Assembly (NCBI GenBank): GCA_964604995.1 | Contig: CAZSAD010000005.1 | Location: 3,221-67,220 of the forward strand | DNA from: an uncultured Methanosarcinales archaeon | GTDB taxonomy: Archaea > Nanobdellota > Nanobdellia > Woesearchaeales > JABMPP01 | Direction: 5' to 3' | DNA: 64,000 nt | Shown here: positions 2,087-63,964 of the stretch, piece after piece | How the letters are laid out: every line of letters starts with the position of its first letter | How positions within the stretch are numbered: the first letter of the stretch is position 1 | Notes under the pieces: generated by a model | The model's database searches: none | What the model was told of the DNA's origin: nothing | The model's input: only the letters and a program-made list of their open reading frames with translations | Position numbers and translations under genes: made by a program

Positions 2087-2091
2087 TCTTA

Positions 2092-2544: not shown

Positions 2545-2667
2545 ATAAATACCTTATAACAAGCCATAACTTACCAAATATTTAATCTAATAATCAAAAT
2601 CACTTAAATAAACAATAAAAATATTAAGAGGTTATCCTTAAATTACATAAGTTACAATAAATAAGGT

Positions 2668-3189: not shown

Positions 3190-3230
3190 ATTCATAAAAT
3201 TCAATTTTTTCAATAAATAATAAATTTAAC

Positions 3231-3236
3231 AAAGAG
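3231..3236 (+). promoter_or_regulatory. Shine-Dalgarno-like aagagg upstream of ATG 3242
   Basis: GAGG core 5-6 nt from the start. Confidence 0.35.
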
Positions 3237-3241
3237 GCAAA

Positions 3242-3793: not shown

Positions 3794-3943
3794 CCTATTT
3801 TTTGTTAAACAATTTTTTAATTATCTTTATTTTCTCAATTTCTTTTTTCCAATATTATTCCCACTATTATTCCCAATTTTTTTATTATCATTACCTACCA
3901 ATTAAAACAAAGCTATAAAAACAGGCACTCAATTAAAAAATAC

Positions 3944-6195: not shown

Positions 6196-6218
6196 TTAAC
6201 AAACTCGAAAAAAAGAAA

Positions 6219-29300: not shown

Positions 29301-32300
29301 AATTATAAAGCAATAGCTCTTGGTAAAATCATATCTATTGTCCCTACTTCTTCAAATACAAAATTACAAAGCAAATATTCACCAAAAGAAGCATTTTTAA
29401 TCTCAGATAAGAATTGGCAAGATGTTTTAAGTTTAGTTCCACTAACAACCTGGACTGGAAATGAACAAGATACAAATTGGTGCCAAAAAGGAACAGGAAC
29501 ACCAGAAAGCGTTTGTGTTTATCCAACACTTATTTATCATGAAGAAGAATCAAAACCAATCCCACTTATCCCTTATCAGCATTTCAGCTTTGATGTTCAA
29601 GGAGAAGGGAACATGACGCAGTACCTTGCTAATGATTCAGGTATTTTGGTACCTGTAAACACTTCTATACCTGATTGGGTATTTAACCTTGTATTTCCAA
29701 GAACTATCCTTAGTCAAAATATCAACATAACACCAAATGCAACTTATACTATTAATTTTTCATTATCTTCTCCTTCAATGGTTTATGCAAATATACATAA
29801 TTTTACAATATATTATCCTTCATTCCTTATTCCAGAAAACGATACTTTTTTTGTTGTTAATCAAACTTTTTATCCTGGGCAAAAACTTATTTACCAAGTT
29901 ACTTTCAAATCAAATGTTGGGATACCTTTTGATGCAGATTCTTTAATTCATTTTTTGCAGGATTATCAGCCATCCGAAATCAAGTTGATAGGGGATTCTC
30001 CTCCATCTCTGGATGATCTTTTAATCACTCCAGCACCAATCGGTGCAGGACTAAGCTCTTCACAGATTACAAGAATAAATATTTCAGATATTTTTTCTGC
30101 ATGGCAGAATTTTAAAGAATTGGTTTATGTTGAAGACAATTATGGGACAGCAATGGTTGCTTCAACTTATGCTTCACTTATCAATGCACCTCTAGTTGTA
30201 AAAAATTCACAGTTGGATTTTCCAAATATTTTTGTAAACAAAGATGTAATTTGTATTGGTAATGTTACCCCTCTAATTGGGATATGTACTGAATTATATA
30301 ATTCAACACAACTTAATTTTAAGATAGCTCAAATAACACAATCAGATAAATTGATGGTTACTAATCCAAATGATATCAATAAAAAAGTTAATAATTTTTT
30401 CACCCCCGATAAGTCATCGACACCAATAAATGAATTATATTCAAAAAATTCTTTGGCTGCACCAATACTTGCTAGTGCAAAGCACGAAATCTTGGTTCCT
30501 GTGACTTCAGAAAAAGTGAACGAAATAAAAAATATCGTCAAAAATAGTGTTGTGCAGTTCATGCCCGAAATAATCAATAACCCCTCTGGAATTTTAGACA
30601 ACAATTTTGACAATCCAATTTGGCAGATAATAAAAGAAAATATTGGTGATGGAAACAAAGAGATTATTAATAAAAATACTATGGCTTATACCCCCGATTT
30701 TATACCTTCTGACGACAAAATTGCTTGGAGGAGAGATAGTAACCACCTTTTTGTTTATGATCTTTCTAATACAAATCTGAAAACAGTTAGTTTTGCGTCT
30801 TTTCCAGGATATTTAAGCAGCTTCAATATTAAAGGAGATAAACTGGTTTCAAGTATAATTGATTTTGGGAATAATCTTGTTTATTGTAGATTAATATTAA
30901 CAGATTTGGGTAATCCAGGTTCATCAACACTTGTTTTTTCAGGAAATAAAGATTCATGCACTTATTATGATAATTCATTTGATATCACTGAAGATTATAT
31001 TTATTTTACTAAGATGACAACAGTTGATTATTCCAAAGACAGTGTAATTATGAGATATTCTATAAACACCTATTCCACACAAGAAGTATTCAAAGCATCA
31101 TCCCACAATATTTACAGCATCAGGACATTATTTGCAGATGATAATCTCTTGTTTATTTTGGCTTATACTAATTCAGGCAGTGAAATTTTTATGTTTAATA
31201 TGACAGATAACACTACGAGAACTATTACAACGACTTTTTATGATATCCTGGATATGTTTTATGTATCAGGAAAGATTGTGTGGTCTCAAGGTTATGATTA
31301 TAATACTCCTTTATATTCCTTGCGTGTTTATAATATCTTAACAAACCAAACAACTTTGATTACGGATTCATTGAGGATGAATGGTGGCAATGGTGTTGTA
31401 TCATCCCCAAAAAGCTTGAATAATATTGTAACTTATGTAGTTGATAATGAAACTGCAAATAAGCAATGTGAAATGACTAAATTATCCTGCTCAACTTTAT
31501 CTCCTTGTAATAATTATTGCACTAATGATCATTCTTATTGCAGTAGCAATTTGGATTGTGATGGTAATGATTGCATGACTGACCAGTGCATACCAACAGA
31601 TTATTACGCTTATAACATTTCAAGTGCACAATCTAAATTAATATCTTCAGGAAAAATCATGGCTTCTCCATTGTTTGACGGGGATTACCTTTATTATGGC
31701 AATAAGTTAATGGGCACATACACTATTGACGGCTACTTTACAGTAATAGGTTCAAATATATCGATCCCTTACAAAGAAGATATGGATCCTGGTGCAATGT
31801 ATGATAATTTTAAATATCTTGATGCATCTGATTATGCAGATATTTATAATGAAGATATGCATCCGGACATGGCAGTTGGCAGAATACAAGGTATAACTTC
31901 AACTGATGTTGCTTCATACATTGCAAGGGATATTTTCTTATCTCACAGTTTAAGACTCGCCTCTGCTAAAATGCTTGCATCTTCTTTTGATTATGAAATA
32001 CATACTGCAGAAAACTGGACTCAAACATTTAATTATTCCAGATACAATGCAACATGCAATATTTTACCAACAGCAACTTCAGGAACAGATTTCAACTGTA
32101 AGATTGAAGAAAATACTACCCTTTGGCCAAATGAATACAAAAATAAAGGTTTGGTGCAATATTTGGATCATGGTGCACCAAATTGGGCAGGAATTAATTC
32201 CAATCAAATCCCTTATTTATCAAACACATTACTATTCAATGATGCATGTTCAACATGTTCAACTTATGATGACCAATCATTTTGTAGTAATGCAATTCGC

Positions 32301-32528
32301 AGAGGAGCATTATTACATGCTGGTGCAGCTTCTATTGCATGGACAGGGAATAATGTTTATATGAACATGGTAAATGGTATTTATTACGACAATCTTACTT
32401 TAGGCCAGGCATTTTCAAAAAGCTTTGAATATAATTATTATAGGTATATGACTATGATTTTAGGAGACCCGACATTAAATATAAACGCACAGCCTGAAAT
32501 AATCAGCCCGCTAGAGCAACAATGGTAA
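23397..32528 (+). CDS. Giant (3043 aa) secreted protein with a tandem ~584-aa module duplication and a C-terminal gingipain-like (C25, clan CD) cysteine-peptidase domain
   Basis: Signal peptide with a lipobox-like LTGC. Modules at 25838-27590 and 27591-29343 (SGYDLNIHSYFQIPPTIQSNSNL... vs SSYDLNINSHFSIIPTIQSNSNL...). C-terminal YLDHGAPNWAGINSNQIPYLSNTLLFNDACSTCS resembles the gingipain His/Cys dyad region GHGSETAWG...NSNQLPFIFDVACVNG. Putative His codon at 32169-32171, Cys codon at 32247-32249. Confidence 0.8.
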   Translation: MKQSKTKISSKNNKLKIINNQIFILLFISLSLIFLTGCPSGEGIYETSTEEYNAGWVLHNINDSTSTTLEYNSSELMIYNASFNFPADSPLDYAHSSFWMYPYNAKDDPIFLTSIVSFPVPSKRTYYYYGSTGGVNYDSTWGTLEDTYITYEYSFEQDETPWEFKQTEQIFGYNYYYTARKVVEKQYGIAPYKIANFAGNSYSFWVEGKLIKNQLLENPAYLNKASQVGFPIPTLKISHNGNITLERNLAQYYPPPDNVYSWNYYNGYFYFWGINNSGIYQADMIIPTYYPIWSNVEQTVQFLLEQDSNNNDQLALMSKIPKLEFFYVSPYFTSGETIFVVINFSNEVNISAVQLQFSTDDINYETVVLSGNNNYYYANYTAPFYAEKLDSYIFATTYQGYNYTLKIENVALKKVQPIITITGPDSVSLLDETNYYVDCEYTFKNEQKKCNYALLNLNLNNVPIKKYFPSYNNLTTFSLKIPINATNNFTLSSWFEGSGNLLGAQSQNYPVSIQRYDHDLKMINYKVHSKIVNQNNTITATIANIGINPEYNVPVILAPESKYGPNGFYSISHIPVINPREIVEVNLTFIPTYSDTIYLNLTVNALLDTNIFNNNISLEINPKFNGSNIYPRINYLVNPLIINVPNQIRLDIPNSGLKTATNVSYKFYIFDFISPDVMFEGTTNWNYNNVNYLINLSSPTLNTHHVTIKYNNLIISKQLFDKEVLELDNNICFVIYEMFNDSTINFYHIQFKECIVTNSNLQDIIPTLDRQPVYSTLVNYTPTKVGFYTSYVSLINNEEYLLDNFDATSFQVTKSGYDLNIHSYFQIPPTIQSNSNLTVRVRNDGNLKSPPNTTTKIRDVININSWDIITSTTKTIFYEGITYQITIIPHVEIPYFFSINISYLNITENFDLYISQSYKLNNSVIFAISYSFNSSWFEIIFGKEHFSKEFLVPEIKPGGYIETQIEIPNNTYFEHRLFSEVFSDGDRDLYNNFKSNWYLMDLHNPDIAIELNSNFPNNLLVNEIAYLNFSIKNYKQYNATDIWITVNLTNSNNMGEKTTTLFQTHLNSLEGYSSIHYLFNFTPTDVGYYQLDIFAELENDDHFYNNYINLNFESKRNESYLRSYLNIEPFYDLFLLDTNNSIDVKLNNYGFLEVKNVSMVLYLDNNLIINESNIYIASFGSYFYNSNFIPTQKKEYHLSLQIFDNTNNSNLIYDYWQFVPAVRQISTQMQITDMQENPQTRYIATRQGELGFFNGTANINVLDEMEHFSSYFVDEESEEYFGFMTRYSYFNETEELKTQLLWNIESNNLHADLIYLNYPSWQYSQSEIKLIINLIKHPINTNYLRLFGCTLYNFENNSCLSNWEEINGDNINLDNNNLYVNSWFNNYKAIALGKKITGSSYDLNINSHFSIIPTIQSNSNLTIGIWNNGGLNSPDTTAKIRDVMDINSWSIMVNITQEFFYDGITYQFTITPNAENSNLFSINISYLNITETFSLYPLQNYKLNNSVIFAIKYYFGYSWLEIMLGKEHFYKEFLLPEINPQSYFETQIEVPSSNKIEHMLFSDVFLEGDVYAPDNFNINTYQVETFYPDVAIEPDQSFPNNLLVNETAYLNFSVKNYRSYNAFDIKIIVNLTNFGKMEQETTTIFSAYLNSLEGYGTIPYLINFTPQNLGYYQLDIFAELENDTYFYNNHANLYFRSMENESNLNVNFNIEPYYDLFILDNNNRINIILDNYAFLELKNVSMILYLDNNPILNESNIYITSFGSLFYNYNFTPTQKKEYNLSLQIFDNTNQSNLIYNYNQLVPAAKQISTQIQISDMQENPQKRYIVTRQGELGFFNGTANINILDEYEHFSSYLVNEEDEEYFGFMTRYSYFNETEKLTTQLLWNVDSDNLHADLIYLNSPSWQYEQSEIKFVINLNQHSINTNNVTVFGCNNYIYQNNSCLSNWEEINNGGVILDNNNLYVNAWFNNYKAIALGKIISIVPTSSNTKLQSKYSPKEAFLISDKNWQDVLSLVPLTTWTGNEQDTNWCQKGTGTPESVCVYPTLIYHEEESKPIPLIPYQHFSFDVQGEGNMTQYLANDSGILVPVNTSIPDWVFNLVFPRTILSQNINITPNATYTINFSLSSPSMVYANIHNFTIYYPSFLIPENDTFFVVNQTFYPGQKLIYQVTFKSNVGIPFDADSLIHFLQDYQPSEIKLIGDSPPSLDDLLITPAPIGAGLSSSQITRINISDIFSAWQNFKELVYVEDNYGTAMVASTYASLINAPLVVKNSQLDFPNIFVNKDVICIGNVTPLIGICTELYNSTQLNFKIAQITQSDKLMVTNPNDINKKVNNFFTPDKSSTPINELYSKNSLAAPILASAKHEILVPVTSEKVNEIKNIVKNSVVQFMPEIINNPSGILDNNFDNPIWQIIKENIGDGNKEIINKNTMAYTPDFIPSDDKIAWRRDSNHLFVYDLSNTNLKTVSFASFPGYLSSFNIKGDKLVSSIIDFGNNLVYCRLILTDLGNPGSSTLVFSGNKDSCTYYDNSFDITEDYIYFTKMTTVDYSKDSVIMRYSINTYSTQEVFKASSHNIYSIRTLFADDNLLFILAYTNSGSEIFMFNMTDNTTRTITTTFYDILDMFYVSGKIVWSQGYDYNTPLYSLRVYNILTNQTTLITDSLRMNGGNGVVSSPKSLNNIVTYVVDNETANKQCEMTKLSCSTLSPCNNYCTNDHSYCSSNLDCDGNDCMTDQCIPTDYYAYNISSAQSKLISSGKIMASPLFDGDYLYYGNKLMGTYTIDGYFTVIGSNISIPYKEDMDPGAMYDNFKYLDASDYADIYNEDMHPDMAVGRIQGITSTDVASYIARDIFLSHSLRLASAKMLASSFDYEIHTAENWTQTFNYSRYNATCNILPTATSGTDFNCKIEENTTLWPNEYKNKGLVQYLDHGAPNWAGINSNQIPYLSNTLLFNDACSTCSTYDDQSFCSNAIRRGALLHAGAASIAWTGNNVYMNMVNGIYYDNLTLGQAFSKSFEYNYYRYMTMILGDPTLNINAQPEIISPLEQQW
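25838..29343 (+). repeat. Tandem duplication of a ~1750-nt (~584 aa) coding module in two diverged copies
   Basis: Protein-level collinearity across the whole module. Identical DNA islands include ttggtttaacaattataaagcaatagctcttggtaaaa at 27543-27580 and 29291-29328, aaacttaacaattcagttatttt, and ccaacgcaaaaaaaagaatat. Confidence 0.8.
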
Positions 32529-51840: not shown

Positions 51841-52644
51841 TTATTTTTGTGCAATGATTTTAGAGCAAACTAAGAACATATAATATCTTGCCCAATTGAA
51901 GAAAAGAAATGATACAATTAGTGAAGATATAATAAACATGTAAGGATTTATTGAATTTAAAGGATTTACTATCAATACTAAGGGAATAGCAAATACTATA
52001 TAAGCGTAAAATATTGATAATGCTAATTTATGTGGATTTTTCAGCAATTTAAAAACTGCTAAAAATCCTTTCCCTATTTTAGAATTTGAAGATAAACCAT
52101 AAATAAATGCATTATAAAAATACAAAAAGCAAAGTACTATAATTGGTCCAATAAATTTTAATGCTGTAGCATTTATGTTTTTAATTGAAAACAGTATAAA
52201 AGCATATAGCATCATTACAATCATTATTTTAAAAACACAAGTAATTATAGCATTCAATAAAAATTGCCACCATCTTTCTTTTCTTTCAAAATAATTTTTT
52301 AATATAAATCCTCTCCAAAACATATTATTAGCAATTAAAAGTATAATAGTGCTAAAAAAATACAATCTGAAATTTTTAACAGCACTTGCAACTACTGTTA
52401 ATTTATTAAAAGAAAATAACTGTGCCATGTTCATGGAATTAAGTAGTGGCCAGGCATCTTTTGTTAAAAGTACAAATCCTCCCAAGATAAACAAAAATAT
52501 TGAATAATGTGCTACATCAAAATAAAACATTTTTAAAAATGGCTTTTCAAACTTAAAACTTTTAGCAAAAGAACTATTAAGAAAATAATCTAATAACTTA
52601 TTTTTTCTTTTTTTAGAATTTTTTATATTATTTTGTTTTTTCAT
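51841..52644 (-). CDS. Polytopic membrane protein
   Basis: At least six hydrophobic helices. Confidence 0.5.
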   Translation of the reverse strand: MKKQNNIKNSKKRKNKLLDYFLNSSFAKSFKFEKPFLKMFYFDVAHYSIFLFILGGFVLLTKDAWPLLNSMNMAQLFSFNKLTVVASAVKNFRLYFFSTIILLIANNMFWRGFILKNYFERKERWWQFLLNAIITCVFKIMIVMMLYAFILFSIKNINATALKFIGPIIVLCFLYFYNAFIYGLSSNSKIGKGFLAVFKLLKNPHKLALSIFYAYIVFAIPLVLIVNPLNSINPYMFIISSLIVSFLFFNWARYYMFLVCSKIIAQK

Positions 52645-52657
52645 GGTGTTATTATTT

Positions 52658-54826
52658 TTAACTTATTCTTGGTTGAAGTAATGTTCCTGGGCAGATTTGC
52701 AAATGTTTCAATGGTGCATTTAAATCCATTATTCCTTTAGGTTCCCCTTCATTTGTTGATTGGAACATAATCTTACTTTTTTGCATATAATCCTCTTTAA
52801 CTGTAAAATTTACAAGAGCTCCACCAACAAAAGTTGATCTTATTTCCATATCTTTATTTGGTAAGGTAATTCCACCAATACTCTCTGAAAATGCAGGTAT
52901 TACTCTTGGAGCATTCTCGGGATAATTATAACTTAACATTATTTGCGCTGTATAATTTCCAGGTCCCAATGCAACTTGTGTCTTATCGTTGCCATTAAAT
53001 GTGGGAACATAAGCTAATATAAAATTTCCATCTTTTGCAATTCTTGATATTTGTATTGAAACTTTATGACTTTCATTTAAAGACGCAATTTCAGATGTTA
53101 TTTCACAATATTCTGTATTGTCCGGGTAGGTTGTTATTTTAGTTACATAACTAATTAATCCAACTTCAAGTGTTTTAAGAGGTACAATATCAAAAGTTGG
53201 AACATATCCTGGTATAAATCCTTCATCTGTACTAAATCCCCTATAAGCATCCATATATTTTGGATTTGTTATTCTAAGCATACCTCCATGACAAATTGGA
53301 AAATTAGAGGTAAGCAAAACATTACCGCTCTCATTTTTTTTTGCAATACCAACGCTACAAAATAATCCTATTGGGGTACATTGGTAATCTACAATTGCAC
53401 CATCTAATAAATTACTATTTGCTTCAATTTTCGCATCTTTAAATTCAATTGTTATTGGATCACTTTGTGCTTGATTAGAATCGCAATCTAAATCATTTAG
53501 ATGTGCAGTAATATTATTATCAGAATAATTATTTATTGCAGGTGGGTTCATTAATGAATATCTTGGTGCATTGTCCCTTACAACAATTAGCATTGGAAAT
53601 TGAAAATTATATTCATGTCCTAATTTTTTATCTTCTATATTAATTAACACAGGATATTCAAAACTATATTTGTAATTGTAACCATTTTTGCATTGATTAG
53701 GCGTGAACATGCTGCTAATATCAATACTTGAAGTTGGCATTAATATTCCGCCTGGTCCAATTTGACCATTTATTAAAAATATATTTGTTGGATAAGGTGT
53801 TACAGTAACCACAAAATCACTATAATTTTCCCTTGTCGCATCAATAATTAACCCATCAAAGAAATTTCGAAGTGAAAGTGCTTCAATTGGGTCAGGATAC
53901 TCTGTTTTTGAAACTTTAATTTTTGTAAATCTAGTGTTGTTGTATCTGACTAATGGGATATTATCATTTAACATCTGATTAAACAAAGTTTCAGCATCTC
54001 CAACATTCCACATCTGTTTATCAGAACAACTTTCATCTTTGTCTCCTCCTTCTCTAGGTGGCAAATAATCATCTCTTATTGCTTCATAAGAAGGCATTAT
54101 ATTATTCAAAGTAAGTGTTTCAAAACTATTAAGTGCAATTTCATGTATCATTATATCTGACGCAAGTCCATATATTTTTGCAAGCCTAATTGGGGAACTT
54201 GCAGAAAAAGAACTAATTTCCAAATCTTTTCCACTTTTGCTTATTTTTAATGGATATTCAATTTCTGCTGTAATATCTTCATCATTAAAACTTAAATAAA
54301 CTCCTAAATCTCCTTGCTCTTCAAAAGAATAGCCCATACCTACAAAATTTTGAAAATCATTAAAGCAATCAGATATATTTGTTGCAATATAATCTGCAAG
54401 TTGTCTTTGCATAGAATAATCATCAGGTATGTAATTTTGTATCAGTAAACTTGGTGCATTATCTATATAATTAATCCCATTTTTTTGGTTATACCAATAA
54501 GGAATATAAAAATTTGGAACAACTTCGAGCAAATCTCCACTTCTAAAACCTTGAATTGGTTTTTCAAATCTTGAGTCTATATCAACCCATCCAGCTTGCA
54601 TTCCTATTTTTGTTAATCCATCTTCCAATGTGGTTTCAACACAGTTATCAATAAATGTTTTGATTGGTTTTATTTCATCGGGAACAACAATAACTTGACT
54701 TACTTCAGTATTCATCTTTTGCTCTGTTTGATTATTTCTAAAATAAAAAAATAATGCAGAAGCGAAAAGTAAAACTATCGCTATGATAATAAACAAAGTA
54801 ATTTGACCTCTTTTTTTCATTCTCAT
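52658..54826 (-). CDS. Large (722 aa) pilin-like or surface protein with a class III signal peptide
   Basis: MRMKKRGQITLFIIIAIVLLFASALFFYF. Confidence 0.6.
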   Translation of the reverse strand: MRMKKRGQITLFIIIAIVLLFASALFFYFRNNQTEQKMNTEVSQVIVVPDEIKPIKTFIDNCVETTLEDGLTKIGMQAGWVDIDSRFEKPIQGFRSGDLLEVVPNFYIPYWYNQKNGINYIDNAPSLLIQNYIPDDYSMQRQLADYIATNISDCFNDFQNFVGMGYSFEEQGDLGVYLSFNDEDITAEIEYPLKISKSGKDLEISSFSASSPIRLAKIYGLASDIMIHEIALNSFETLTLNNIMPSYEAIRDDYLPPREGGDKDESCSDKQMWNVGDAETLFNQMLNDNIPLVRYNNTRFTKIKVSKTEYPDPIEALSLRNFFDGLIIDATRENYSDFVVTVTPYPTNIFLINGQIGPGGILMPTSSIDISSMFTPNQCKNGYNYKYSFEYPVLINIEDKKLGHEYNFQFPMLIVVRDNAPRYSLMNPPAINNYSDNNITAHLNDLDCDSNQAQSDPITIEFKDAKIEANSNLLDGAIVDYQCTPIGLFCSVGIAKKNESGNVLLTSNFPICHGGMLRITNPKYMDAYRGFSTDEGFIPGYVPTFDIVPLKTLEVGLISYVTKITTYPDNTEYCEITSEIASLNESHKVSIQISRIAKDGNFILAYVPTFNGNDKTQVALGPGNYTAQIMLSYNYPENAPRVIPAFSESIGGITLPNKDMEIRSTFVGGALVNFTVKEDYMQKSKIMFQSTNEGEPKGIMDLNAPLKHLQICPGTLLQPRIS

Positions 54827-54845
54827 GTTAATACCTTATTATATT

Positions 54846-56612
54846 TTAACAAGTTTTATCGCTAGATGATAATGCTGAATAATAGCTGGTAGTTGTAGTT
54901 ATTGGATAGCAATATTCTTCTTTATTGTTAAAATCGCTTCCAGTTAAAGCTTGCACACAAACTTGATTAAATCTACAACTGTTTTGTCCACCAGGGCAAT
55001 CTACTCCATCTTTTAGTGGTCCAGTTTTTCCACCACTATAAAAATGCCTATTAATCACAAAAGATTGAATTGCAAGATTATCTGCAATAACATAATCCGG
55101 AATGTTTATTCCATTTTCACCACTGCAAGTATTTTTCAACCATATTTTCCATGTCGAATCAACTGTTGGAAATATTTTTACAGTTACAAGATATAAATAA
55201 TTATCATCGCTTATTTGGCTAGCTTCACCATTCAAACTTACAGAATTCGCATTCATATTCGCATAAATTGTTTGAAGATCAGTATCTGGCATTCTAGTCC
55301 ACATAGTATTTGAATAAAAACCTTGATTATATGGTGAATTGTATATCTGACTTGTCGTTATAGCTTTACATGCATCTTTTGCACCAATTATTGCAGGATC
55401 AATCCATCCAGTTACTGCACTCCACAAATAATCAAACACTAACATTTCAAGTGCTTGTCCAACACTTGTTGTTATTTTTCCAAGTCTTCTATCTTTATTG
55501 TCAGCTTTAAATTTATCATATTGTTTAATTGCATCATCATTTTTAAGTTTACCATCAGCATCAAAGCAGGCTTTAGGGCAATACCAATAAGCAAAATCTG
55601 CTCTTGCATTTTCACCCATCTCTACCCATCCAAGACCTTTTAACATTAGTGGAATAAATGTTCTACCAGATTTACTCAAATCTTTTGCAGTTTCTTTAGT
55701 CATTGTAAATGGAGTTTTACTATATTTGAATATAAGGTTTCCATTAGTTAGGGTGGTTGTAACATAATAAGGTGTTTTACTAAACGTAACTTCTCCCTTA
55801 TCATTTGCACCAACATAAATTTTTTCCTCATTTGAATTAGTATAATATTTTAATCCAGTTCCACTTTCTTCGTATGGTGTAAGGCTACTAGTATAATCAG
55901 TAGGTAAACCAAAATCAGCTGGATTAGTATCTTTTGAAGCAGGTGGTGGGAATGGGTCATTGCTAAATATTTGTTGATTATTGGAATTAGTACCTAAATA
56001 AACTTTGCCACCATTTTTATCTAAAGTGTATGTTCCTTTACCATCATTGTCATTTTTTATTACCCATTTATTTCTATCTGGATCTAAATTCCATTGTGTT
56101 GGATCCAATTCTTTACTTGGTGGAGTAAACGCTGCATTGCTAAATATTTGTTGATTATTGGAATTAGTACCTAAATAAACTTTGCCACCATTTTTATCTA
56201 AAGTGTATGTTCCTTTACCATCATTGTCATTTTTTATTACCCATTTATTTCTATCTGGATCTAAATTCCATTGTGTTGGATCCAATTCTTTACTTGGTGG
56301 AGTAATAGAGGGGGGGGTAATAGGTGACACAACAACTTTAGGTTTAGTAATTGTTTTTTTTACTGTTGTAATTGTTTTCTTAACATTATCTTTTGGTTTA
56401 TCTTTATTTATATTTTTACCAATATTATTAATTGGAAAATATTGCGCTTCAACAAATGCAGATAATATAACACTACCTAACAAAATTATTGCAACCATAA
56501 TTGCAAAAGTCCATTTAATTTTTTTAGCAGTTATTCCCATAATCATCACAAGTATCATAACATTCATCTGGATTTGTCGTGCAATCCACATTTTGATTAT
56601 TGTTATTTCCAC
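54846..56612 (-). CDS. Secreted/anchored repeat protein with a perfect 59-aa tandem duplication
   Basis: TM/signal WTFAIMVAIILLGSVILSAFVEAQ; 2x FTPPSKELDPTQWNLDPDRNKWVIKNDNDGKGTYTLDKNGGKVYLGTNSNNQQIFSN. Start uncertain; overlaps the end of the upstream gene by up to 89 nt. Confidence 0.55.
   Translation of the reverse strand: MEITIIKMWIARQIQMNVMILVMIMGITAKKIKWTFAIMVAIILLGSVILSAFVEAQYFPINNIGKNINKDKPKDNVKKTITTVKKTITKPKVVVSPITPPSITPPSKELDPTQWNLDPDRNKWVIKNDNDGKGTYTLDKNGGKVYLGTNSNNQQIFSNAAFTPPSKELDPTQWNLDPDRNKWVIKNDNDGKGTYTLDKNGGKVYLGTNSNNQQIFSNDPFPPPASKDTNPADFGLPTDYTSSLTPYEESGTGLKYYTNSNEEKIYVGANDKGEVTFSKTPYYVTTTLTNGNLIFKYSKTPFTMTKETAKDLSKSGRTFIPLMLKGLGWVEMGENARADFAYWYCPKACFDADGKLKNDDAIKQYDKFKADNKDRRLGKITTSVGQALEMLVFDYLWSAVTGWIDPAIIGAKDACKAITTSQIYNSPYNQGFYSNTMWTRMPDTDLQTIYANMNANSVSLNGEASQISDDNYLYLVTVKIFPTVDSTWKIWLKNTCSGENGINIPDYVIADNLAIQSFVINRHFYSGGKTGPLKDGVDCPGGQNSCRFNQVCVQALTGSDFNNKEEYCYPITTTTSYYSALSSSDKTC
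55961..56314 (-). repeat. Perfect tandem duplication, 2 x 177 nt, in coding sequence
   Basis: 55961-56137 and 56138-56314 are identical by direct reading. Confidence 0.85.
56310..56317. repeat. G8 (C8 on the coding strand) homopolymeric tract inside a surface-protein gene
   Basis: agagggggggggtaa; encodes TPP. Rare in a ~30% GC genome. Confidence 0.7.
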
Positions 56613-59600
56613 CCAAATCCGGACTTGTACTATCCATTGCTTTATGTTGTTCTACTAATTTTTTAGTTTCTTGGATTTTTCCAATATATAAACCAGTTGT
56701 TGCAGCAGCATATGCATAACATTGTGGTTCCCATGCAAGTCCGCCTGTTGGGCAAATTTGCCAAGTCATACCTAAATCTCCAATCAATTCCAATGCCCAT
56801 TTCATAGCATAACTTTTTACATAGTTTAATACTATATTTACCATATATCTTGCAATAACATTTCCCCCACCAGAATACACACATTCAAATTGTTGTTCAT
56901 ATTGATTGCACATTATTGAATTACTATTACCCATAATCGTTTTTTCTTTATTGCATGCTTCAGTAGTTGTTTTAACTACTTTTTTCATTTGGTAATAATT
57001 ATATAATCCAGTAACGCAAGGTGGCAATTGGAACCACGCAAGCCATATATTTGTCCTTGGATCCATATTACTATCCATATAAGATGACCATTTTATTCCA
57101 TCACTAGTTTCATCTTGAGCAGTAGCAGCTTTGGTTAAATCATCCATTGTTCCATCTGCCAGGGCACTAAATCCACTAGCCCATGTACCTCCAGAATCAC
57201 AAGTAAAAGCTGAACACCAATATTTTACAGATGTAACATCCCATGGACTTTTTATTTGCCAATATCCCCACATTGTAGCAAATGCTGAGGTAACAGTTGA
57301 TCCAAATCCAGGAACCCATCCTAATCCTGCTGCAGCAATGGATACTATTTCTAAACTATAAGCGTAATATTTACATCCATCCAATCCAAAATTAACTATC
57401 GGATATAATTCATCAGACCATTTTTTAGCATTTTCAATTTCTTTTTTAATATCTTCAGACATGGGCGAAGTCCTATCTTCTCTAAATCTATTGAACTTAG
57501 AAGTAAGGTCAAAATTAATTGTCGCACTTACATATTCATAATCATTGTAAACATAATTCTTATCTGTGTTTTTTATTGCAACTGTACAAGTTACTTTTAT
57601 TTCATCATTTGTACTTTTTTTCAAGAAATCATCTTTTAATGTTGGCAATTGCACAACAAAATATTTTTGTGTTCTATCTCCATTAATATAAAAATTAGAA
57701 TTATCTACTCCTAATTCTAGTACATCAGGATACTGGGGAGATGTACAATTGATTATATCGGCTAAAGCAATTTTTAAATCAGAAGAAACTCCACTTTTTT
57801 TAGTTAGTGTTAGGGTGTTTCTAATATATAACCCCCCAGTTGCAGAACTTATTGAACTAGACTTAAGAAAATTTCTATTTATAGATGATATTTGAGGGGT
57901 CACTGTAGCAGTCCAATGAGTGCCACTTTGACTAGTTCCACTATCTTTATATTTTAATACACCACAACCCTCAGGTACATTAGCTACATTATTATGAACT
58001 GTGCTTTTTATCATATTTCCTGCTTTATCAGTAACATTAATGGAAAATGTTCCGTACATAGATGAGCCATTTTCACACTCTGTAATCTGTGTTGTCCAAG
58101 GGTTGTATGCTCCAAATTCCCATTGACAAACCCATTTGTTATTTTCTGTTGATTTGCAACCACAATCTGAACACATTGAAATAGAAGGAGATGAAATTTC
58201 ATTCAATCCTCTTGAATTCATAATTGCTTTAAGTGGTAAAAATGTATTTGTTTCATCAATTCCAAATCCTGTTGCACTAGATTCATCAATATATATAATT
58301 ACATCTACTGCTTGAAATCTAATTGGATCAATAAGTGAAGGGTCTTTATTAACAACTTCAATTTTAGTTACTTTTGGATAAGTAATATCTACAGAAAATG
58401 TTTTTGGTAGGGTTATGGGAGTTACTGCAAAATCATCTTGTACACTTAATTCTATATTAACATTCTCTCCAGTTGAATCGCTAATTCCCAATTCTGATGC
58501 ACTAAATCCAACTGGTTTAGAAACAGTTCCTTCTCTATAAAACATTAAATTATATTTTCCATTTGATGTGCTAGGGAATACATAAATTAATGCATTTGCG
58601 GGAATAGATGTGATCCCTACTTTCAATTTAATTTTATCACCATTATAATTTCCAATAGGTGTTAATTTAACAGCACTAATTGTTGCGAAAAATACATTGT
58701 CTTTATCTTTTATCCAATTGCCATTTTTTGTTTTAATTTCATCTATTGTTGAAGTTTTTGTTGTTTCTACTTTCAATTCTTTACTTTGATTATTTCCTGC
58801 ATTATCAACAAAATTAACATAAACATCTTTTCCAAAACAATTTGATGATGTAGCTCCAGCATTTGTCCAAGTGCATTTAACTTTGGTATTTGTTTCATCT
58901 ACATAAGCGCATTCAGTAGCTTGTACTCCACTTGCAGAAAGTTCACATTCACTTGGTCCATTCAAATAAACATTCCACCCATATCCTCCGCTTGTTTTAT
59001 TGTATAAAATACCTGAACCAGCAGTAGAATCCTGTGCTATTGCTTCAACATCCATTCCGGAGCCAATTCCTAATGAATCTTTATTTGTTAAAAGAACCGA
59101 ATCTTGTTCAATTGTAGGAACATTAATGTCAATTTTTATTTTGCAGTTATTATTGGTATCATCGCATCCTAAATGAGATGTTTTTGAAAATGTATTTCCT
59201 GCATCATCTTTACTATCAGATGTAACATCAAAAGAAAAGAGTTGTCCATCACTCCCTCCAGAAATATTAACTCCATTAAATGTACATTTGTAAAGACCAG
59301 CACTATTATCAATACAATTTCCACTAATATCCCCATTAGCACTACTAATTCTTACATTATTGTTATTAAATCCACTGCTCCCTTCTTTTGTTAAATCATT
59401 TGGAGTATCATTAATATAAAAATCAAGTTTGTTATTATCTTGTTTAACCCACCCAACAACTGAACTATTTACTCTAACAAGTGTTGGTGCAGTATTATCT
59501 GGCAATGCCTTAGGTAATTCATTTATTGCAAATAATGTTGTATCTAAAACATTTCCTGCAATATCACTTATTTTAACAGTAACTGGATTTGTTTTTATTC

Positions 59601-60747
59601 CAGTATTACTTGTAGTAATATTCCATGTAGCTGTCCACTTATTTTGTACATCTGATACTACAGTTACTACACCATTAACACTCTGTTGAGTTTTACTAAA
59701 ATATGATGCATTCAAAATTGCACTTGGTGGATTGCTTTGTTCTTTAGTAAAATTTGCAATTATTGCTAATACTTCTCCATCTTTAATATAATCTGTAGAA
59801 GTAATAATTGTTCCAGTTGAATCTGTAATTATTTTTTCTGCAGGCTCCATTAATTCTGGAGCTTTAAGATCTAATGTATAAACAGTTTCATCACAAGCAT
59901 CCGAAGTTGTTGCCAAGTCTAATTTATCTTTTGCATTGCCACATATTTTTACATTCCCTTTAAACTCTGTTCCAAAAATATTAACAATGTCTGATTTTGG
60001 AAAAGTAACTGAACTGTTGTTTGGAGGTATACTTGTTATTAAATTACATCCAGAATTTATACTGCTAAGATCTTTTTGCACTTGGATTAATCTAGGAGTT
60101 GTAAGAGAAGTAACACCTTGTTCTATAATATAAATATTAACTTCTTTTATTCCTGCACATTGCATTCCATTAGCACCAGAAAAAGCTTGATCATTTGCAT
60201 TAAAAGGAATCGATAATTTACCATTACTAAACATCAAATAATTATTTGGTGCGACAATTGTTCCAATGCTAAACATAGGAGGCATATCATCAACATAAAA
60301 AGTAAATGGTCTTTGTTTTACAAACCAATTATTTGGAGGAGTTGTATTTGTTAATGGATAGCGATACAATGCGACAAGTTCATTAACATATTGTCCTGCT
60401 GTAAAATAAGGGGATAAAGTATATTCTTTAGAACATGTAAAATAACCTGAATTAATGTTTGACTGAACGCATGGTCCACTTCCAAATAACATCCATTGAC
60501 TTGGCAAATAAAACATTAAATTGTCTTTTGTTACTGTCGTAGCAGATAATTGTGCATCAGCTTTGATAATAAGAGTATCTTGTTTTCCAAGTACATTTCC
60601 TTCTCTTTCAACACCATTTCTTTTGCTGCTTATTGCAATATTATCATATAAATCATCAGCCATAACTTTAGAAATATAAATTGGCATACTAATAACTAAT
60701 AAACTTATAAATATAGCAATTCCTTTTAACCCACGCATTCTACTCAC
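56524..60747 (-). CDS. Large (1407 aa) secreted protein, Cys-rich C-terminus, probable Ig-like/beta-rich domains
   Basis: Signal peptide MSRMRGLKGIAIFISLLVISMPIYISKVMA. Confidence 0.6.
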   Translation of the reverse strand: MSRMRGLKGIAIFISLLVISMPIYISKVMADDLYDNIAISSKRNGVEREGNVLGKQDTLIIKADAQLSATTVTKDNLMFYLPSQWMLFGSGPCVQSNINSGYFTCSKEYTLSPYFTAGQYVNELVALYRYPLTNTTPPNNWFVKQRPFTFYVDDMPPMFSIGTIVAPNNYLMFSNGKLSIPFNANDQAFSGANGMQCAGIKEVNIYIIEQGVTSLTTPRLIQVQKDLSSINSGCNLITSIPPNNSSVTFPKSDIVNIFGTEFKGNVKICGNAKDKLDLATTSDACDETVYTLDLKAPELMEPAEKIITDSTGTIITSTDYIKDGEVLAIIANFTKEQSNPPSAILNASYFSKTQQSVNGVVTVVSDVQNKWTATWNITTSNTGIKTNPVTVKISDIAGNVLDTTLFAINELPKALPDNTAPTLVRVNSSVVGWVKQDNNKLDFYINDTPNDLTKEGSSGFNNNNVRISSANGDISGNCIDNSAGLYKCTFNGVNISGGSDGQLFSFDVTSDSKDDAGNTFSKTSHLGCDDTNNNCKIKIDINVPTIEQDSVLLTNKDSLGIGSGMDVEAIAQDSTAGSGILYNKTSGGYGWNVYLNGPSECELSASGVQATECAYVDETNTKVKCTWTNAGATSSNCFGKDVYVNFVDNAGNNQSKELKVETTKTSTIDEIKTKNGNWIKDKDNVFFATISAVKLTPIGNYNGDKIKLKVGITSIPANALIYVFPSTSNGKYNLMFYREGTVSKPVGFSASELGISDSTGENVNIELSVQDDFAVTPITLPKTFSVDITYPKVTKIEVVNKDPSLIDPIRFQAVDVIIYIDESSATGFGIDETNTFLPLKAIMNSRGLNEISSPSISMCSDCGCKSTENNKWVCQWEFGAYNPWTTQITECENGSSMYGTFSINVTDKAGNMIKSTVHNNVANVPEGCGVLKYKDSGTSQSGTHWTATVTPQISSINRNFLKSSSISSATGGLYIRNTLTLTKKSGVSSDLKIALADIINCTSPQYPDVLELGVDNSNFYINGDRTQKYFVVQLPTLKDDFLKKSTNDEIKVTCTVAIKNTDKNYVYNDYEYVSATINFDLTSKFNRFREDRTSPMSEDIKKEIENAKKWSDELYPIVNFGLDGCKYYAYSLEIVSIAAAGLGWVPGFGSTVTSAFATMWGYWQIKSPWDVTSVKYWCSAFTCDSGGTWASGFSALADGTMDDLTKAATAQDETSDGIKWSSYMDSNMDPRTNIWLAWFQLPPCVTGLYNYYQMKKVVKTTTEACNKEKTIMGNSNSIMCNQYEQQFECVYSGGGNVIARYMVNIVLNYVKSYAMKWALELIGDLGMTWQICPTGGLAWEPQCYAYAAATTGLYIGKIQETKKLVEQHKAMDSTSPDLGGNNNNQNVDCTTNPDECYDTCDDYGNNC

Positions 60748-60847
60748 ATCTGTTCTCTACAACTATATATATTTTTTCATATATGGTCATAGTAACTAAA
60801 TATTTCCGTTATCCCTTTTTTAATTGGTGAACTTGAAATAAAACTAA

Positions 60848-63800
60848 TTATGTAGATACAATTACACAGTCATTAGTCACACCATTCAATGTACAAAACA
60901 CATTTGTTTGTAAATTTTCATAAACTTGCACATCTTGTTTAGTTGCCACGTTTATATTGCATTGAACTTTAACTGTGTATTGTTCAGTATTAAGTAGATA
61001 ATTATGTGCAGTAAAAGCACTTGGTGTTTCTTCATTATTAATATAAATCGCACAATTTTGCGGTGTCGAATCAATATACAAATATCCTTGGGAAATTGGT
61101 GTTAATTGCACTTCAATTGATGTTGTTTGACCATTCGAAATAGTAAAAATTTCAAGTGGAGCAATATATCCTGTCTTATTAACAGTTACATTATGTTCTC
61201 CAATATCTAAAACAAAAGAATGAGGCGTAGGTGTATTCTGGTTTATATCATCTAAAATAATATTAGCATCAGTTGGGGTTGTTCCTACTATTGCAGTTAC
61301 TTCTAGTGTCCCAGTGTTGGTTGGAAGCAAATTAGTCTCAAAAGTAGTTGTCTCTCCTTTTGTGATTGATGCAATTCCGCTATAAGGTATATAACCCTCT
61401 TTAGTAACTTTTATTTCATAATTTCCGGGAGGCATATTATTTAAAATAAAAGAATCTCCTATTGATGCATCTCCCCTATAAACATTACCAACATAAACTT
61501 TAGAATCATCTACATTAGATGTTATTTCTAAAACAGTTGAAACATCAGGATTCATAACAAGTCTTAATCTAGATGTTATTTGTGGATAAATTGCATTCAT
61601 TTTATCAAAACTAAGACTTGATAATGTATAATTCCCAACTGTTCCTGTGCAGTTTAATGTTTGATTATTATATCTATAAATAGAATCGCATATGTAAGTT
61701 GTTAAATTATCATAACTAACAATTACATATTTATCTCCAGTAGCACTTGCATCTTTAAATCTAACTGCGCCAGTAATTGTTTTATTCATTACATGCACTG
61801 TGTAATATCTATCATATTCAAATATTTCAGTTGGAACATCTCTTCTTTGTGTAAAAAGTGATTGAATAAATCCCATTATACTTTTAACAGGATTTGATAA
61901 GAATTGTACAAATGCTCCCCATCTTGAAGCTTTTAATAATTCCATTCCATCTTTATTGTAAACTACAATTTTTGTGTAATTGTCATACCATAATTTATTT
62001 TCAGATGTGCAAGCTTCAAATCCATCTGTTCCTTTTCCCTCGCAAATATGCTCATAACTTGGTCCCAATGTCATTTTTAGATATTCATTAATATTGGTAT
62101 TGTTATTAAGTGAAGTGCCAACAGCAACTCTTCTTTCATAATTATTATTTGGAGAATAATATTGCAGTACACAGAATTTATTTACTGGAATGCCTGGTTT
62201 GTCACTCACACCTTCTTTAAAATATTGTGCAATTGTTTGTTCACCACTTGGATTATTATCTAAATAATTTAAAGTTAAATTATAATTATCACAATGCAAG
62301 CTAAAGTTTTTGATGCTTCCACCTTCAGCACTGTATGAAAAATTCATTAATTCGCTTGCAAGAAGTGCAGTTCTTGTTGTCCAGTTTCCATTCAAGCAAT
62401 ATTTATCTTGGACAAATCTAAAATTATTTGTTGTACAATTTCTTGGATCAAGATACATTTGTTTAAAAACACCCCAACTCTCAACATTTACTGGGGGAGT
62501 TGATCCAAAATAAGATTTATATGATTCTTCTGAAACATAGCATTGCCAATCATAAGAGCAATAAGCATATGATTTATCAGTCCAATCATATCTTCTTGAT
62601 GCATTTGTCCAGTTTCCAGCAGTGCAGATAAACAAATAACTATCTGGATTTGTATTAACATTATTGTTGTAAGGCGGGAATGAATAATTTAACATTGTAT
62701 AATTGCCTTGGCAAGATTGTCCATTCCAACACGAATTAGTGTCATAACAACAGCTGCTAATTGATGGCTGGTTATATAATGCATACTCATTTTGTCTGAA
62801 GAATGGCTGCAATGTGCTAGGCACATAAGAATCAGTATAATCACTAAATACGCAACTAGAATAATTTACAAATCTATAAGTTAAATCTTTCCATAAGAAC
62901 TCATCAACTTTATGGTTATTGTATAAAAGTGATTGATAATGTGTTACAAATATACCATAACCTTTACCAGATAATGATGTTAAATTTGTACAATTTAAAA
63001 CTCTTCCAATTTCACTATTTGGAATTCCTAAATTATTAACACTAACATTACCATATACTGCACTGCAAACTTCTTGTGTGGGGAGTATATCATATAAAAT
63101 TGAAGTATAATTTGTTGTTGCATTAATTCTTTCCCTTATTCCTTCAACTTTGGTTTTAAAGTTTTTGCTTAATCTATTATCTTGTCTATAAAATATTGTC
63201 TCAAAATTCTTTGTTTTATTTATCATATATTTTAAGCCAGTTTTATTGTCAAATGTTTGCGGGAGTAAACTATTATTATTTCTAAATCCTAAAAGTCTTA
63301 AGAACCAATCCCATAATCTTTGGATAAAGTTCAACCCAGTTGGAACTTGCATAGTTTCATCATTTGTAACAATCATGATTTGATAATTTTCATTCCAAAA
63401 TACTTTTTTAATTGTTCCAGTGTAATTAAATACTAATGGTTCATTTGGTGGTAAAATACACTCTTCTATTGGGGTGGGTGGAATATTGTTATCATCATAA
63501 CAATTTGCCCAAAGTCCAAGTGCAATAAAAGTAAATCTTCCAGGTAAATTATTATAATAATTTAATTCAGGATTTGGTGTACTTGTAAAATTATTTGGTG
63601 TCAAACCAATAAGATATTTTTTAGTGTCTAAATTATAAAGCGTACAAATTGGACCAACTGTTAATTTAGAAAGTTCAGATGAATTTTCACATTCAATTGT
63701 ATAATTGGAGTTTGCAGTATATTTATTATCATTAAATTGTAAAAGTGTAAGTGCAATCAAATGTGTTTTTGTTGTCCAGTTTCCTTCAAGACAATAATAA

Positions 63801-63964
63801 TTTCCAGTTACGAAATTATTATCTTGGCAAACATTTCCATCCCAGCAAGATGTTTGATTAATGCAATAGCCATAATTTGTAAAATCATATTTTTCTTTTT
63901 TGTAAACTCTATCCCAATCTGAATAATTCATAACAAAATCATTTGCACCTGTGCCATACTTCAT
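60848..63964 (-). CDS. Large surface protein (at least 1038 aa) with repeated C..GNWT modules and a PEGA-like domain; probably continues upstream beyond the window
   Basis: YYCLEGNWTTKTHL, KYCLNGNWTTRTALL and FICTAGNWTNASRRY recur. PEGA-like NVYRGDASIGDSFILNNMPPGNYEIKVTKEGYIPYS. Frame is open from 63965 to 64000 and there is no signal peptide at MKYGTG. Confidence 0.55.
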   Translation of the reverse strand: MKYGTGANDFVMNYSDWDRVYKKEKYDFTNYGYCINQTSCWDGNVCQDNNFVTGNYYCLEGNWTTKTHLIALTLLQFNDNKYTANSNYTIECENSSELSKLTVGPICTLYNLDTKKYLIGLTPNNFTSTPNPELNYYNNLPGRFTFIALGLWANCYDDNNIPPTPIEECILPPNEPLVFNYTGTIKKVFWNENYQIMIVTNDETMQVPTGLNFIQRLWDWFLRLLGFRNNNSLLPQTFDNKTGLKYMINKTKNFETIFYRQDNRLSKNFKTKVEGIRERINATTNYTSILYDILPTQEVCSAVYGNVSVNNLGIPNSEIGRVLNCTNLTSLSGKGYGIFVTHYQSLLYNNHKVDEFLWKDLTYRFVNYSSCVFSDYTDSYVPSTLQPFFRQNEYALYNQPSISSCCYDTNSCWNGQSCQGNYTMLNYSFPPYNNNVNTNPDSYLFICTAGNWTNASRRYDWTDKSYAYCSYDWQCYVSEESYKSYFGSTPPVNVESWGVFKQMYLDPRNCTTNNFRFVQDKYCLNGNWTTRTALLASELMNFSYSAEGGSIKNFSLHCDNYNLTLNYLDNNPSGEQTIAQYFKEGVSDKPGIPVNKFCVLQYYSPNNNYERRVAVGTSLNNNTNINEYLKMTLGPSYEHICEGKGTDGFEACTSENKLWYDNYTKIVVYNKDGMELLKASRWGAFVQFLSNPVKSIMGFIQSLFTQRRDVPTEIFEYDRYYTVHVMNKTITGAVRFKDASATGDKYVIVSYDNLTTYICDSIYRYNNQTLNCTGTVGNYTLSSLSFDKMNAIYPQITSRLRLVMNPDVSTVLEITSNVDDSKVYVGNVYRGDASIGDSFILNNMPPGNYEIKVTKEGYIPYSGIASITKGETTTFETNLLPTNTGTLEVTAIVGTTPTDANIILDDINQNTPTPHSFVLDIGEHNVTVNKTGYIAPLEIFTISNGQTTSIEVQLTPISQGYLYIDSTPQNCAIYINNEETPSAFTAHNYLLNTEQYTVKVQCNINVATKQDVQVYENLQTNVFCTLNGVTNDCVIVST

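Follow-up and report, generated by a model that had tools for sequence, protein, structure and literature searches.

The stretch of DNA analysed here (64,000 nucleotides, called the window throughout) carries on its minus strand, at 51841–63964, a cluster of five genes for exported or large proteins of 267, 722, 564, 1407 and 1038 amino acids, delineated from Pfam matches, N-termini and synteny. The 1038-aa protein contains a Pfam PEGA domain, and the cluster is syntenic with contigs of a Woesearchaeota metagenome-assembled genome (L009–L012). The best explanation for the host is an AT-rich groundwater archaeon of the DPANN/Woesearchaeota type. As a separate observation, PRJNA292723 is one of several groundwater datasets.

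The third protein of the cluster is encoded by the gene that carries the tandem repeat considered here (54846–56540, minus strand; 564 aa by open reading frame (ORF) and translation), and its sequence is identical to the NCBI protein P0003. From its N-terminus it consists of a signal or anchor segment, a linker rich in Lys, Thr and Pro, three modules of 59 aa, a middle region and a conserved C-terminal beta-sandwich domain, with both the repeat and a C8 homopolymer lying in the 5′ third of the gene. The first 33 residues (56442–56540, minus strand), which start with MGITAKKIKW and run through a hydrophobic stretch up to VEA/Q, form a putative signal peptide or signal anchor, in which the KKIK motif precedes a hydrophobic segment of 20 residues. 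In a full-length single-sequence AF2 model, which was unusable overall (pLDDT 38.7, repeats below 50), the predicted helix at residues 5–32 was the only part to reach a pLDDT of 58–80. No known anchor motif was identified in the 564-aa protein, which is plausibly exported and either N-terminally anchored or secreted. The first-pass annotation had called this a surface-protein gene, and the KKIK-plus-hydrophobic N-terminus and the large exported-type neighbours make that assignment plausible. A plus-strand ORF (56182–56658) that overlaps this region lies antisense to the conserved gene and was for that reason dismissed as spurious.

No part of the protein other than the C-terminal domain (aa ~409–553; 54882–55316, minus strand), delimited by a representative search and alignment A2, has relatives elsewhere (P0004–P0007, E-values 8e-22 to 5e-4), and a profile built from the C-terminal alignment recovered only 4 small clusters. 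Its AF2 model, built on a five-sequence alignment, had a pLDDT of 68 and gave only generic beta-sandwich matches of the Ig-like, FnIII, ApaG or CARDB type in a Foldseek search against the PDB (E ≥ 3.5e-3, TM 0.3–0.4), too unspecific to point to a function. No significant Pfam match was obtained for the whole gene, the repeat region or the C-terminal half, a sequence search of the PDB with the gene product gave no match, and no homologues of the repeat modules for alignment building were found in the protein collections searched. Protein-guided scans of the metagenome_contigs and genome_contigs collections returned no relatives and an exact 28-mer of the repeat end had 0 matches in metagenome_contigs, collections that evidently lack the relevant samples; the exact 564-aa product had no record in the contig index. 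Whereas the neighbouring genes align with the Woesearchaeota cluster over their full length (30–36% identity), the orthologue of the repeat-bearing gene retains only the C-terminal ~130 aa (41% identity) and has an unrelated low-complexity region in place of the N-terminal part. On this comparison the stalk region is evolutionarily labile.

Repeat units and copy number

Tandem Repeats Finder reported a single array at 55958–56305 (period 177, 2.0 copies, 100% matches, score 696), which is by far the top-scoring tandem repeat of the 64-kb window. The period corresponds to 59 codons and is in frame with the minus-strand ORF. Base-by-base comparison showed that the copies are exactly identical across 171 nt, not 177: copy A, the upstream one in the protein, occupies 56135–56305 and copy B 55958–56128 (both minus strand), and between them lies a unique joint of 6 nt (56129–56134, minus strand; ACGCTG on the plus strand, CAGCGT on the coding strand). 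The earlier description of a perfect 2 × 177-nt duplication was therefore right about two exact copies at a period of 177 and slightly overstated the identity, which is 171 nt plus the 6-nt joint; relative to its implied limits of 55961–56314 the array starts 3 nt earlier and ends 9 nt earlier. Its suggestion that the duplication is recent or homogenised is upheld.

At the protein level, copy A matches module 1 (aa 80–138; 56127–56303) and copy B matches module 2 (aa 139–197; 55950–56126). These are followed by an old, diverged 59-aa copy, module 3 (aa 198–256; 55773–55949; all on the minus strand), which was recognised by Smith–Waterman alignment and register, its score of 70 comparing with a shuffle mean of 30.2 (SD 4.7) and being reached by 0 of 2000 shuffles. 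The three units are in register, with start residues 80, 139 and 198.

Two units are present in the window and in P0003. In contrast, four public contigs (L001–L004; JGI 3300009296, JGI 3300009031, ENA ERZ5996431 and ENA ERZ909578) that are 99.98–100% identical to the window over 4.7–8.2 kb have exactly one unit each, and no allele with three or more units occurs among the five assemblies; identical copies number just two. Removing one unit and the joint from the two-copy sequence gives the one-copy sequence exactly. On the plus strand the joint with its flanks reads GGTGGAGTAA-ACGCTG-CATTGCTAAA, i.e., ...GGAGTAA-ACGCTG-CATTGC..., and the unique sequence bounding the array ends with TAGAGGGGGGGG upstream and begins with GGGAATGGGT downstream. 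The window contains the hexamer CAGCGT a single time, and the one-copy alleles lack it; a nearby template for it was sought in the window and flanks and none was found. The joint mismatches both flanks at no fewer than 4 of its 6 positions at every possible breakpoint, and simple duplication of the one-copy allele therefore does not account for the two-copy allele. The one-copy form can be derived from the two-copy form by a deletion. The joint lies within the linker A-A-F, keeps the frame and recreates an x-x-Phe linker (AAF here versus DPF ahead of module 3).

The 2-versus-1 difference is either real copy-number variation or a short-read collapse. It is quite possible, if short of probable, that the two-copy duplication or conversion is fixed in a fast-evolving gene and that the one-copy contigs are all collapses. 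All four are products of short-read assembly, with contig names of the SPAdes NODE and MEGAHIT k127 types and one of them at 2.2x coverage, and tandem repeats are known to cause assembly errors (PMC6868369, PMC9704523). Up to k = 172 the one-copy allele has no k-mer that the two-copy sequence lacks, so a two-copy genome can yield a collapsed one-copy De Bruijn contig. At the repeat the two-copy assembly graph branches; a unitig assembler would be expected to break there rather than span it, yet contigs of 4.7–8.2 kb pass through in four assemblies. One of these, a MEGAHIT k127 contig, runs straight across the repeat despite the branch, which suggests that the sample contained few junction k-mers. 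When contigs broken at the repeat were sought through the upstream 1387-aa product, only L001 was returned. The one- and two-copy contigs look as though they come from one nearly clonal population, possibly with shared libraries, and for that reason the independence of the assemblies is weak. Repeat-number variation, as proposed at first, thus has a counterpart in the two units versus one among otherwise identical public contigs, a difference that short-read collapse could also explain.

The C8 homopolymer

Four nucleotides from the repeat array lies a C8 run on the coding strand (56310–56317, minus strand; G8 on the plus strand), which covers codons 75–77 in ACC CCC CCC TCT (T-P-P-S) and lies at 13% of the ORF of 564 codons; its position and its coding for TPP had been given correctly in the first-pass annotation. 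It is the sole G/C run of 7 nt or more in the window, the next longest being two C6 runs at 47787 and 57832. When synonymous codons in every one of the 35 ORFs were resampled according to codon usage in the window, G/C runs of at least 8 nt arose window-wide in 25 of 1000 trials and in the repeat-bearing gene in 5 of 1000, and runs of at least 7 nt, of which the window has one, in a fraction of 0.16. The tract is spelled by rare codons (CCC, 6.7% of Pro codons; ACC, 6.4% of Thr codons), and codon usage predicts roughly 0.4 such runs for a genome of ~1 Mb. For this reason the C8 is not remarkable alone: the claim that such a homopolymer is unusual holds for 64 kb and lapses at the ~1-Mb scale. 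A/T runs of 8–9 nt are common, with 15 in the window, every one inside an ORF; the homopolymer census includes an A8 on the coding strand (T8 on the plus strand) in the Lys-rich linker at 56354–56361 (minus strand).

As had been anticipated for slippage at this tract, a change of one nucleotide frameshifts the gene in silico, and the altered tracts truncate the protein at 82–93 residues (C7 after 92, C9 after 83, C6 after 82 and C10 after 93 residues). The G8 and the open frame were found in 5 of the 5 assemblies (the window and L001–L004), which are consensus sequences of one population and as such blind to minority G7 or G9 sub-populations, and 5.8 billion clustered proteins contained no truncated or frameshifted product of the gene. 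On/off phase variation at the C8 is accordingly unsupported, and the agreement of the five assemblies makes the sequencing artefact that had been considered for the homopolymer unlikely. Programmed frameshifting was rejected as well, both alternative frames stopping within 8–18 codons. The C8 is a rare-codon spelling of the T-P-P-S linker, at which a frameshift is possible and for which a role as a switch is unsupported.

We therefore regard as unlikely that the gene is a true contingency locus in which the C8 slips often and switches expression ON and OFF while the repeat number adds variation in length. The likeness to the simple-sequence repeat (SSR) contingency loci of Campylobacter, Neisseria, Haemophilus and Helicobacter (PMC6321876, PMC11868660) comprises an 8-nt G/C homopolymer within the 5′ part of the ORF, a probable surface protein, a genome of ~30% GC and a frameshift leading to early termination with no long alternative frame, and a recombinogenic repeat adjoins the tract. 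At 8 nt this intragenic mononucleotide tract exceeds the mutability threshold set for Campylobacter (G/C ≥ 7), and switching has been demonstrated for tracts of at least 8 nt in C. jejuni, whose genome is similarly AT-rich (PMC6321876). The differences are that tract length did not vary among the five assemblies, a comparison of low power, that the poly-C is on the coding strand and that no second tract of this kind occurs in the 64 kb, so that no genome-wide tract set is apparent. The host, moreover, is an archaeon; SSR phase variation is not established in archaea, and its distribution across them is still to be mapped, according to a review (PMC11868660). We find it more doubtful still that a single gene in a DPANN archaeon combines poly-C ON/OFF switching of a host-contact surface protein with module-based changes in length.

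A candidate length-variable surface protein

Two further readings concern the repeat pair itself. We consider it very unlikely that the two-copy form is an artefact of assembly or scaffolding, in which two contig ends sharing a 171-nt overlap were merged, a small gap was filled and the true gene has one unit. The single copy in the four other assemblies and the joint without a source in the flanks or the rest of the window would fit such an error; against it, the period is exactly 59 codons, the joint preserves both the frame and the x-x-Phe linker, and 171 is an unusual k-mer overlap length. Because the modules at 80 and 139 are in register with the ancient third unit at 198, we take the duplication to be biological.

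Diversity-generating retroelements (DGRs) are common in DPANN archaea. The idea that the pair represents the template and variable repeats of such an element has next to no credibility and was rejected on the ground of 100% identity between the copies, which show zero adenine-specific differences; they are also directly tandem inside one ORF, and no reverse transcriptase was found in the 28 of 35 ORFs scanned against Pfam, the two giant ones not among them, although surface proteins diversified by DGRs are a known trait of the lineage (PMC5758913).

We lean towards a small length-variable, periscope-like surface protein, whose one-copy allele is a deletion product and whose C8 is no switch. 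A length-variable protein of this kind is plausible, and for it we infer export, the recombination mechanism and the reality of the one-copy contigs as molecules. Residues 80–256 would make up a stalk-like array in which three 59-residue modules, all in register, alternate with Pro-rich linkers. The DNA identity of modules 1 and 2 may stem from a recent recombination event, whether gene conversion among older adjacent modules or a duplication closed by a non-templated joint of 6 nt. Homologous recombination or replication slippage could then act on the perfect 171-nt direct repeats, so that exactly one module is gained or lost in frame, and the one-module allele in the other assemblies of the same population would be the expected deletion product.

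Periscope proteins such as SasG, Rib/Alpha C and SGO_0707 are bacterial cell-surface proteins with near-identical tandem domains, the number of which varies by homologous recombination (PMC9704523). Like them, the protein described here is a single chain with predicted export, its tandem units are domain-sized and identical in DNA (100% over 171 of 177 nt), the putatively membrane-proximal module of 59 aa falls inside the ~50–165 residues of the class, and a conserved globular domain is found at the far end of the 564-aa protein. Also shared are a repeat that short reads do not resolve and an apparent 2-versus-1 difference in repeat number between near-identical genomes, with which collapse is graph-consistent. 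It differs from them in its archaeal, DPANN-type host, in having two identical copies and one diverged copy rather than a long array, in an orphan module without a Pfam family or homologues, and in its putative anchoring at the N-terminus, with no LPXTG or similar anchor. For this protein, a rod-like shape and genuine variation at the population level are hypothetical. The relation between the two- and one-copy forms also fits the exact in-frame deletion of units known from the streptococcal M protein and alpha C protein (PMC9704523, refs 12–13); the present gene has no kinship with them in sequence, fold or taxonomy and no context of immune selection.

The current evidence amounts only to a recent in-frame duplication or conversion of modules beside an invariant homopolymer, both of which are ordinary in fast-evolving surface proteins. 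Since public assemblies differ here by exactly one unit, differences in database protein length at such loci are unreliable. If the contingency reading were true, one gene would combine SSR bet-hedging with a periscope-type stalk, neither of which has been demonstrated in archaea. With one tract and one amplicon, the locus offers a concrete test case for simple-sequence phase variation in this domain. If the 2-versus-1 difference is real, the gene would be an archaeal case of the periscope principle, so far bacterial, carried by an organism of DPANN type that probably relies on cell–cell contact for its lifestyle.

Structure of the repeat array and its modules

Both the repeat and the adjoining homopolymer lie inside a minus-strand ORF (54846-56540) for which the likeliest start codon, an ATG at 56540, gives a protein of 564 aa. 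Tandem Repeats Finder singled out one strong array, at 55958-56305 (period 177, 2.0 copies, 100% matches, score 696), and gave no other tandem repeat scoring above 82 in the 64-kb window. The first-pass annotation had described a perfect 2 x 177-nt duplication; the tandem pair and its period of 177 stand, but base-by-base comparison resolved the real structure as 171 + 6 + 171, with two copies sharing exactly 171 identical nucleotides (55958-56128 and 56135-56305) on either side of the hexamer ACGCTG (56129-56134; CAGCGT on the coding strand).

Translation of the coding strand across this region reads ...S-P-I-T-P-P-S-I, TPPSKELD...QQIFSN, A-A-F, TPPSKELD...QQIFSN, D-P-F, PPPASKDTNP..., and a third, diverged copy of the same module directly follows the second (Smith-Waterman score 70; shuffled sequences averaged 30.2 ± 4.7, and 0 of 2000 reached 70). 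The modules, which are orphans, start at residues 80, 139, and 198, a spacing of exactly 59. Mis-joined contig ends are not expected to match both period and register, hold the reading frame, and recreate an x-x-Phe linker. We regard the array of two copies as biological, because its period and register fit this ancient protein repeat, the frame is kept, and the x-x-Phe linker is recreated.

The two-copy array did not arise by simply duplicating a one-copy sequence. However the joint CAGCGT is divided between the end of one unit and the start of the next, it differs from the matching flanks at 4 or 5 of its 6 positions, while the 342 nt of repeat core contain no mismatch. Conversely, removal of one core plus the joint yields exactly the one-copy sequence found in other contigs, pointing to a form with two or more copies as the ancestor of the one-copy form. 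One possible origin is that two older neighboring modules with their own linker were homogenized by gene conversion, another that a duplication was sealed with six non-templated bases; the hexamer has no further occurrence in the window, and a search for a nearby template found none. The earlier proposal that the duplication is very recent or homogenized agrees with this picture, in which a recent recombination event would have made the two modules identical.

Repeat number in other assemblies

A search of 5.8 billion proteins returned one cluster with three members, comprising a 564-aa NCBI protein from a 67.5-kb contig (P0003) that is identical to the window protein and two shorter versions of 514 aa (P0001, JGI) and 505 aa (P0002, ENA), which are identical to it but for the start-codon call and exactly one missing 59-residue unit. 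The contigs of these two shorter versions come from four other assemblies, namely L001 (JGI 3300009296), L002 (JGI 3300009031), L003 (ENA ERZ5996431, a SPAdes node with 2.2x coverage), and L004 (ERZ909578 = SRR2177954, groundwater project PRJNA292723, MEGAHIT k127). All are 99.98-100% identical to the window at the DNA level over the parts that match, evidently representing the same near-clonal population, and each of the four carries a single repeat core. L003 (NODE_7386) matches the window over 52351-57618 only; its flanks (1-1266 and 6358-8167) do not match the window, one of them carrying a PIN-domain gene and the other a Fapy-DNA glycosylase gene, so that L003 is either chimeric or derived from a rearranged strain.

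The repeat-number alleles first proposed are thus matched by a difference of two versus one unit among assemblies, but collapse of a two-copy repeat by short-read assemblers can give the same pattern. All one-copy k-mers up to k = 172 also occur in the two-copy sequence, leaving only about k + 5 joint k-mers to tell the alleles apart, so that assembly from short reads can yield a collapsed contig. Collapse in every case is harder to reconcile with the branch that the two-copy graph has at the repeat, where assemblers built on unitigs, MEGAHIT among them, would be expected to break except when the joint path is rare, and with the continuation of the four assemblies for 2-6 kb through the repeat on both sides. 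The balance tilts slightly toward real copy-number variation (two versus one).

The C8 tract

Four nucleotides from the repeat lies the G8 run at 56310-56317 (C8 on the coding strand), which is real, as first annotated; no other G or C run in the window is 7 nt or longer. CCC accounts for 6.7% of Pro codons and ACC for 6.4% of Thr codons in the window, and 1 of its 33 Pro-Pro dipeptides, that at the C8 tract, is spelled CCCCCC. Synonymous-codon resampling produced a G/C run of at least 8 in 2.5% of trials for 35 ORFs and in 0.5% for the 564-aa gene; scaled, this is about 0.4 such runs per Mb. The tract is unusual for a single window, yet a small genome with one such run would be no surprise.

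The tract encodes part of an I-T-P-P-S pentapeptide that occurs twice in tandem (coding strand, 56296-56324), spelled ATT ACC CCC CCC TCT and then ATT ACT CCA CCA AGT. Five of the 15 positions differ between the two spellings, all five synonymous and including a Ser codon-family switch (TCT vs AGT). The peptide appears to be conserved, with the C-rich spelling as one of its two versions; the synonymous-only differences suggest that the linker peptide itself is under selection, perhaps because it serves as a motif for glycosylation or as a protease-resistant linker.

Gain or loss of one or two bases in silico ended the protein at residue 82-93 with no long alternative frame; slippage would thus frameshift the gene, as originally claimed, and the tract has the form of an ON/OFF switch. 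However, the phase variation proposed on this basis was not borne out, as G8 and the open frame were present in five of five assemblies (a test of low power, all being consensus sequences from one population) and the protein collections searched held no truncated or split versions. We found no evidence for ON/OFF switching by C8, and because the five assemblies agree on G8, the suspected base-calling artefact is also unlikely.

In the similarly AT-rich Campylobacter jejuni, G/C tracts of at least 7 are candidate switches and those of at least 8 have been shown to switch, the tracts being mostly 9-10 long with G on the coding strand (PMC6321876). The A/T cut-off in that study was 10, so that the 15 A/T homopolymers of 8-9 nt in the window are not comparable candidates (PMC6321876). 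All 15 lie inside ORFs (e.g., T9 at 53334-53342 and T8 at 56354-56361), several within the first 3-16% of the gene (1565, 42922, 45045, 39284, and 56354). Their placement may follow the 5' bias of poly-A/T tracts described in prokaryotes (PMC2831843), or AT-richness alone may account for it.

A probable cell-surface gene cluster, and the repeat gene compared with known systems

The window (GC content about 29%) is archaeal, encoding eIF2-gamma, NOG1, L10e, and proteins with class III (pilin-type) signal peptides; it gave no tRNA or Rfam matches. Five co-directional genes at 51841-63964 encode products of 267, 722, 564, 1407, and 1038 aa, with PEGA domains in the 1038-aa product and a pilin-like KRGQ motif at the start of the 722-aa product; all five are annotated as hypothetical. 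The same gene order occurs in the Candidatus Woesearchaeota MAG GCA_018303405.1 (contig JAGVYD010000013.1) and in related metagenome contigs (L009-L012), and the cluster looks like a conserved DPANN cell-surface module without assigned function. The 564-aa gene begins within the upstream 1407-aa gene and shares the last 17 nt of it (56524-56540), or 44 nt if translation starts at the alternative upstream ATG of the JGI gene call; this overlap suggests co-translation within an operon.

The 564-aa protein begins with MGITAKKIKW and about 20 hydrophobic residues (...VEA-Q), a basic-plus-hydrophobic N-terminus interpreted as a signal peptide or anchor, followed by a Lys/Thr/Pro linker containing T-P-P-S (ACC CCC CCC TCT), the repeat region, and a C-terminal part that contains Cys. 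It has no Pfam, PDB-sequence, or named relatives, and 1.84 billion representative proteins included relatives only for residues ~409-553. Its four neighbors align with the Woesearchaeota cluster over their full length (30-36% identity), whereas the 564-aa protein aligns over its last ~130 residues only (41% identity); the orthologue there (P0005, 407 aa) lacks 59-aa modules, and its N-terminal half is unrelated and rich in Ala/Ser/Pro. The N-terminal two-thirds of the 564-aa protein evolve far more rapidly than the remainder of the cluster. The C-terminal domain was predicted with a pLDDT of 68 (5-sequence alignment) and resembled only generic Ig-like beta-sandwiches.

Elsewhere in the window, two giant ORFs (6180-23366, 5728 aa; 23397-32528, 3043 aa) contain internal repeats, including a 1.75-kb tandem pair (25843-27579 / 27595-29328, 80% identity) and dispersed copies (14024-14387 / 17876-18239, 94%; 20194-20390, 92%), so that domain duplication is also under way in further large proteins of the genome. 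A row of small genes at 16-4534 encodes archaeal class III (type IV pilin-like) signal peptides, e.g., KRGQAALEFLMTYGWA; the first two are paralogues (81-86% identity over ~225 nt).

We propose that the 564-aa gene most likely encodes an exported protein in which a short, membrane-proximal array of small, beta-rich modules joined by Pro-rich linkers would bear the conserved beta-sandwich domain at its far end. Module identity would leave the array prone to in-frame module loss or gain through homologous recombination or replication slippage, with the one-module allele as the expected product, and C8 is a potential frameshift site that behaves as stable in the available data. Overall, length variation is plausible and ON/OFF switching unsupported.

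A diversity-generating origin of the DGR type is excluded because the repeat copies are identical. Tract variability, the one defining feature of contingency loci testable here, was not seen (G8 in five of five assemblies), and we do not place the locus in that class. The closest described class is the bacterial periscope proteins, single-chain surface proteins with DNA-identical tandem domains of ~50-165 residues (PMC9704523), whose repeat number varies between related strains via homologous recombination and whose repeats short reads cannot resolve (PMC9704523). The likeness lies in the DNA-identical, domain-sized repeats and overall topology, and possibly in repeat-number variation; in contrast, this locus is archaeal, has only two identical units, uses an orphan module, and has at most a putative rod structure and surface attachment. 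It may represent a minimal, as yet unproven periscope-type case of a known kind. A positive read-level result for phase variation at C8 seems to us quite improbable; since the distribution of phase variation in archaea is still to be explored (reviewed in PMC11868660), such proof would, if true, be of real interest.
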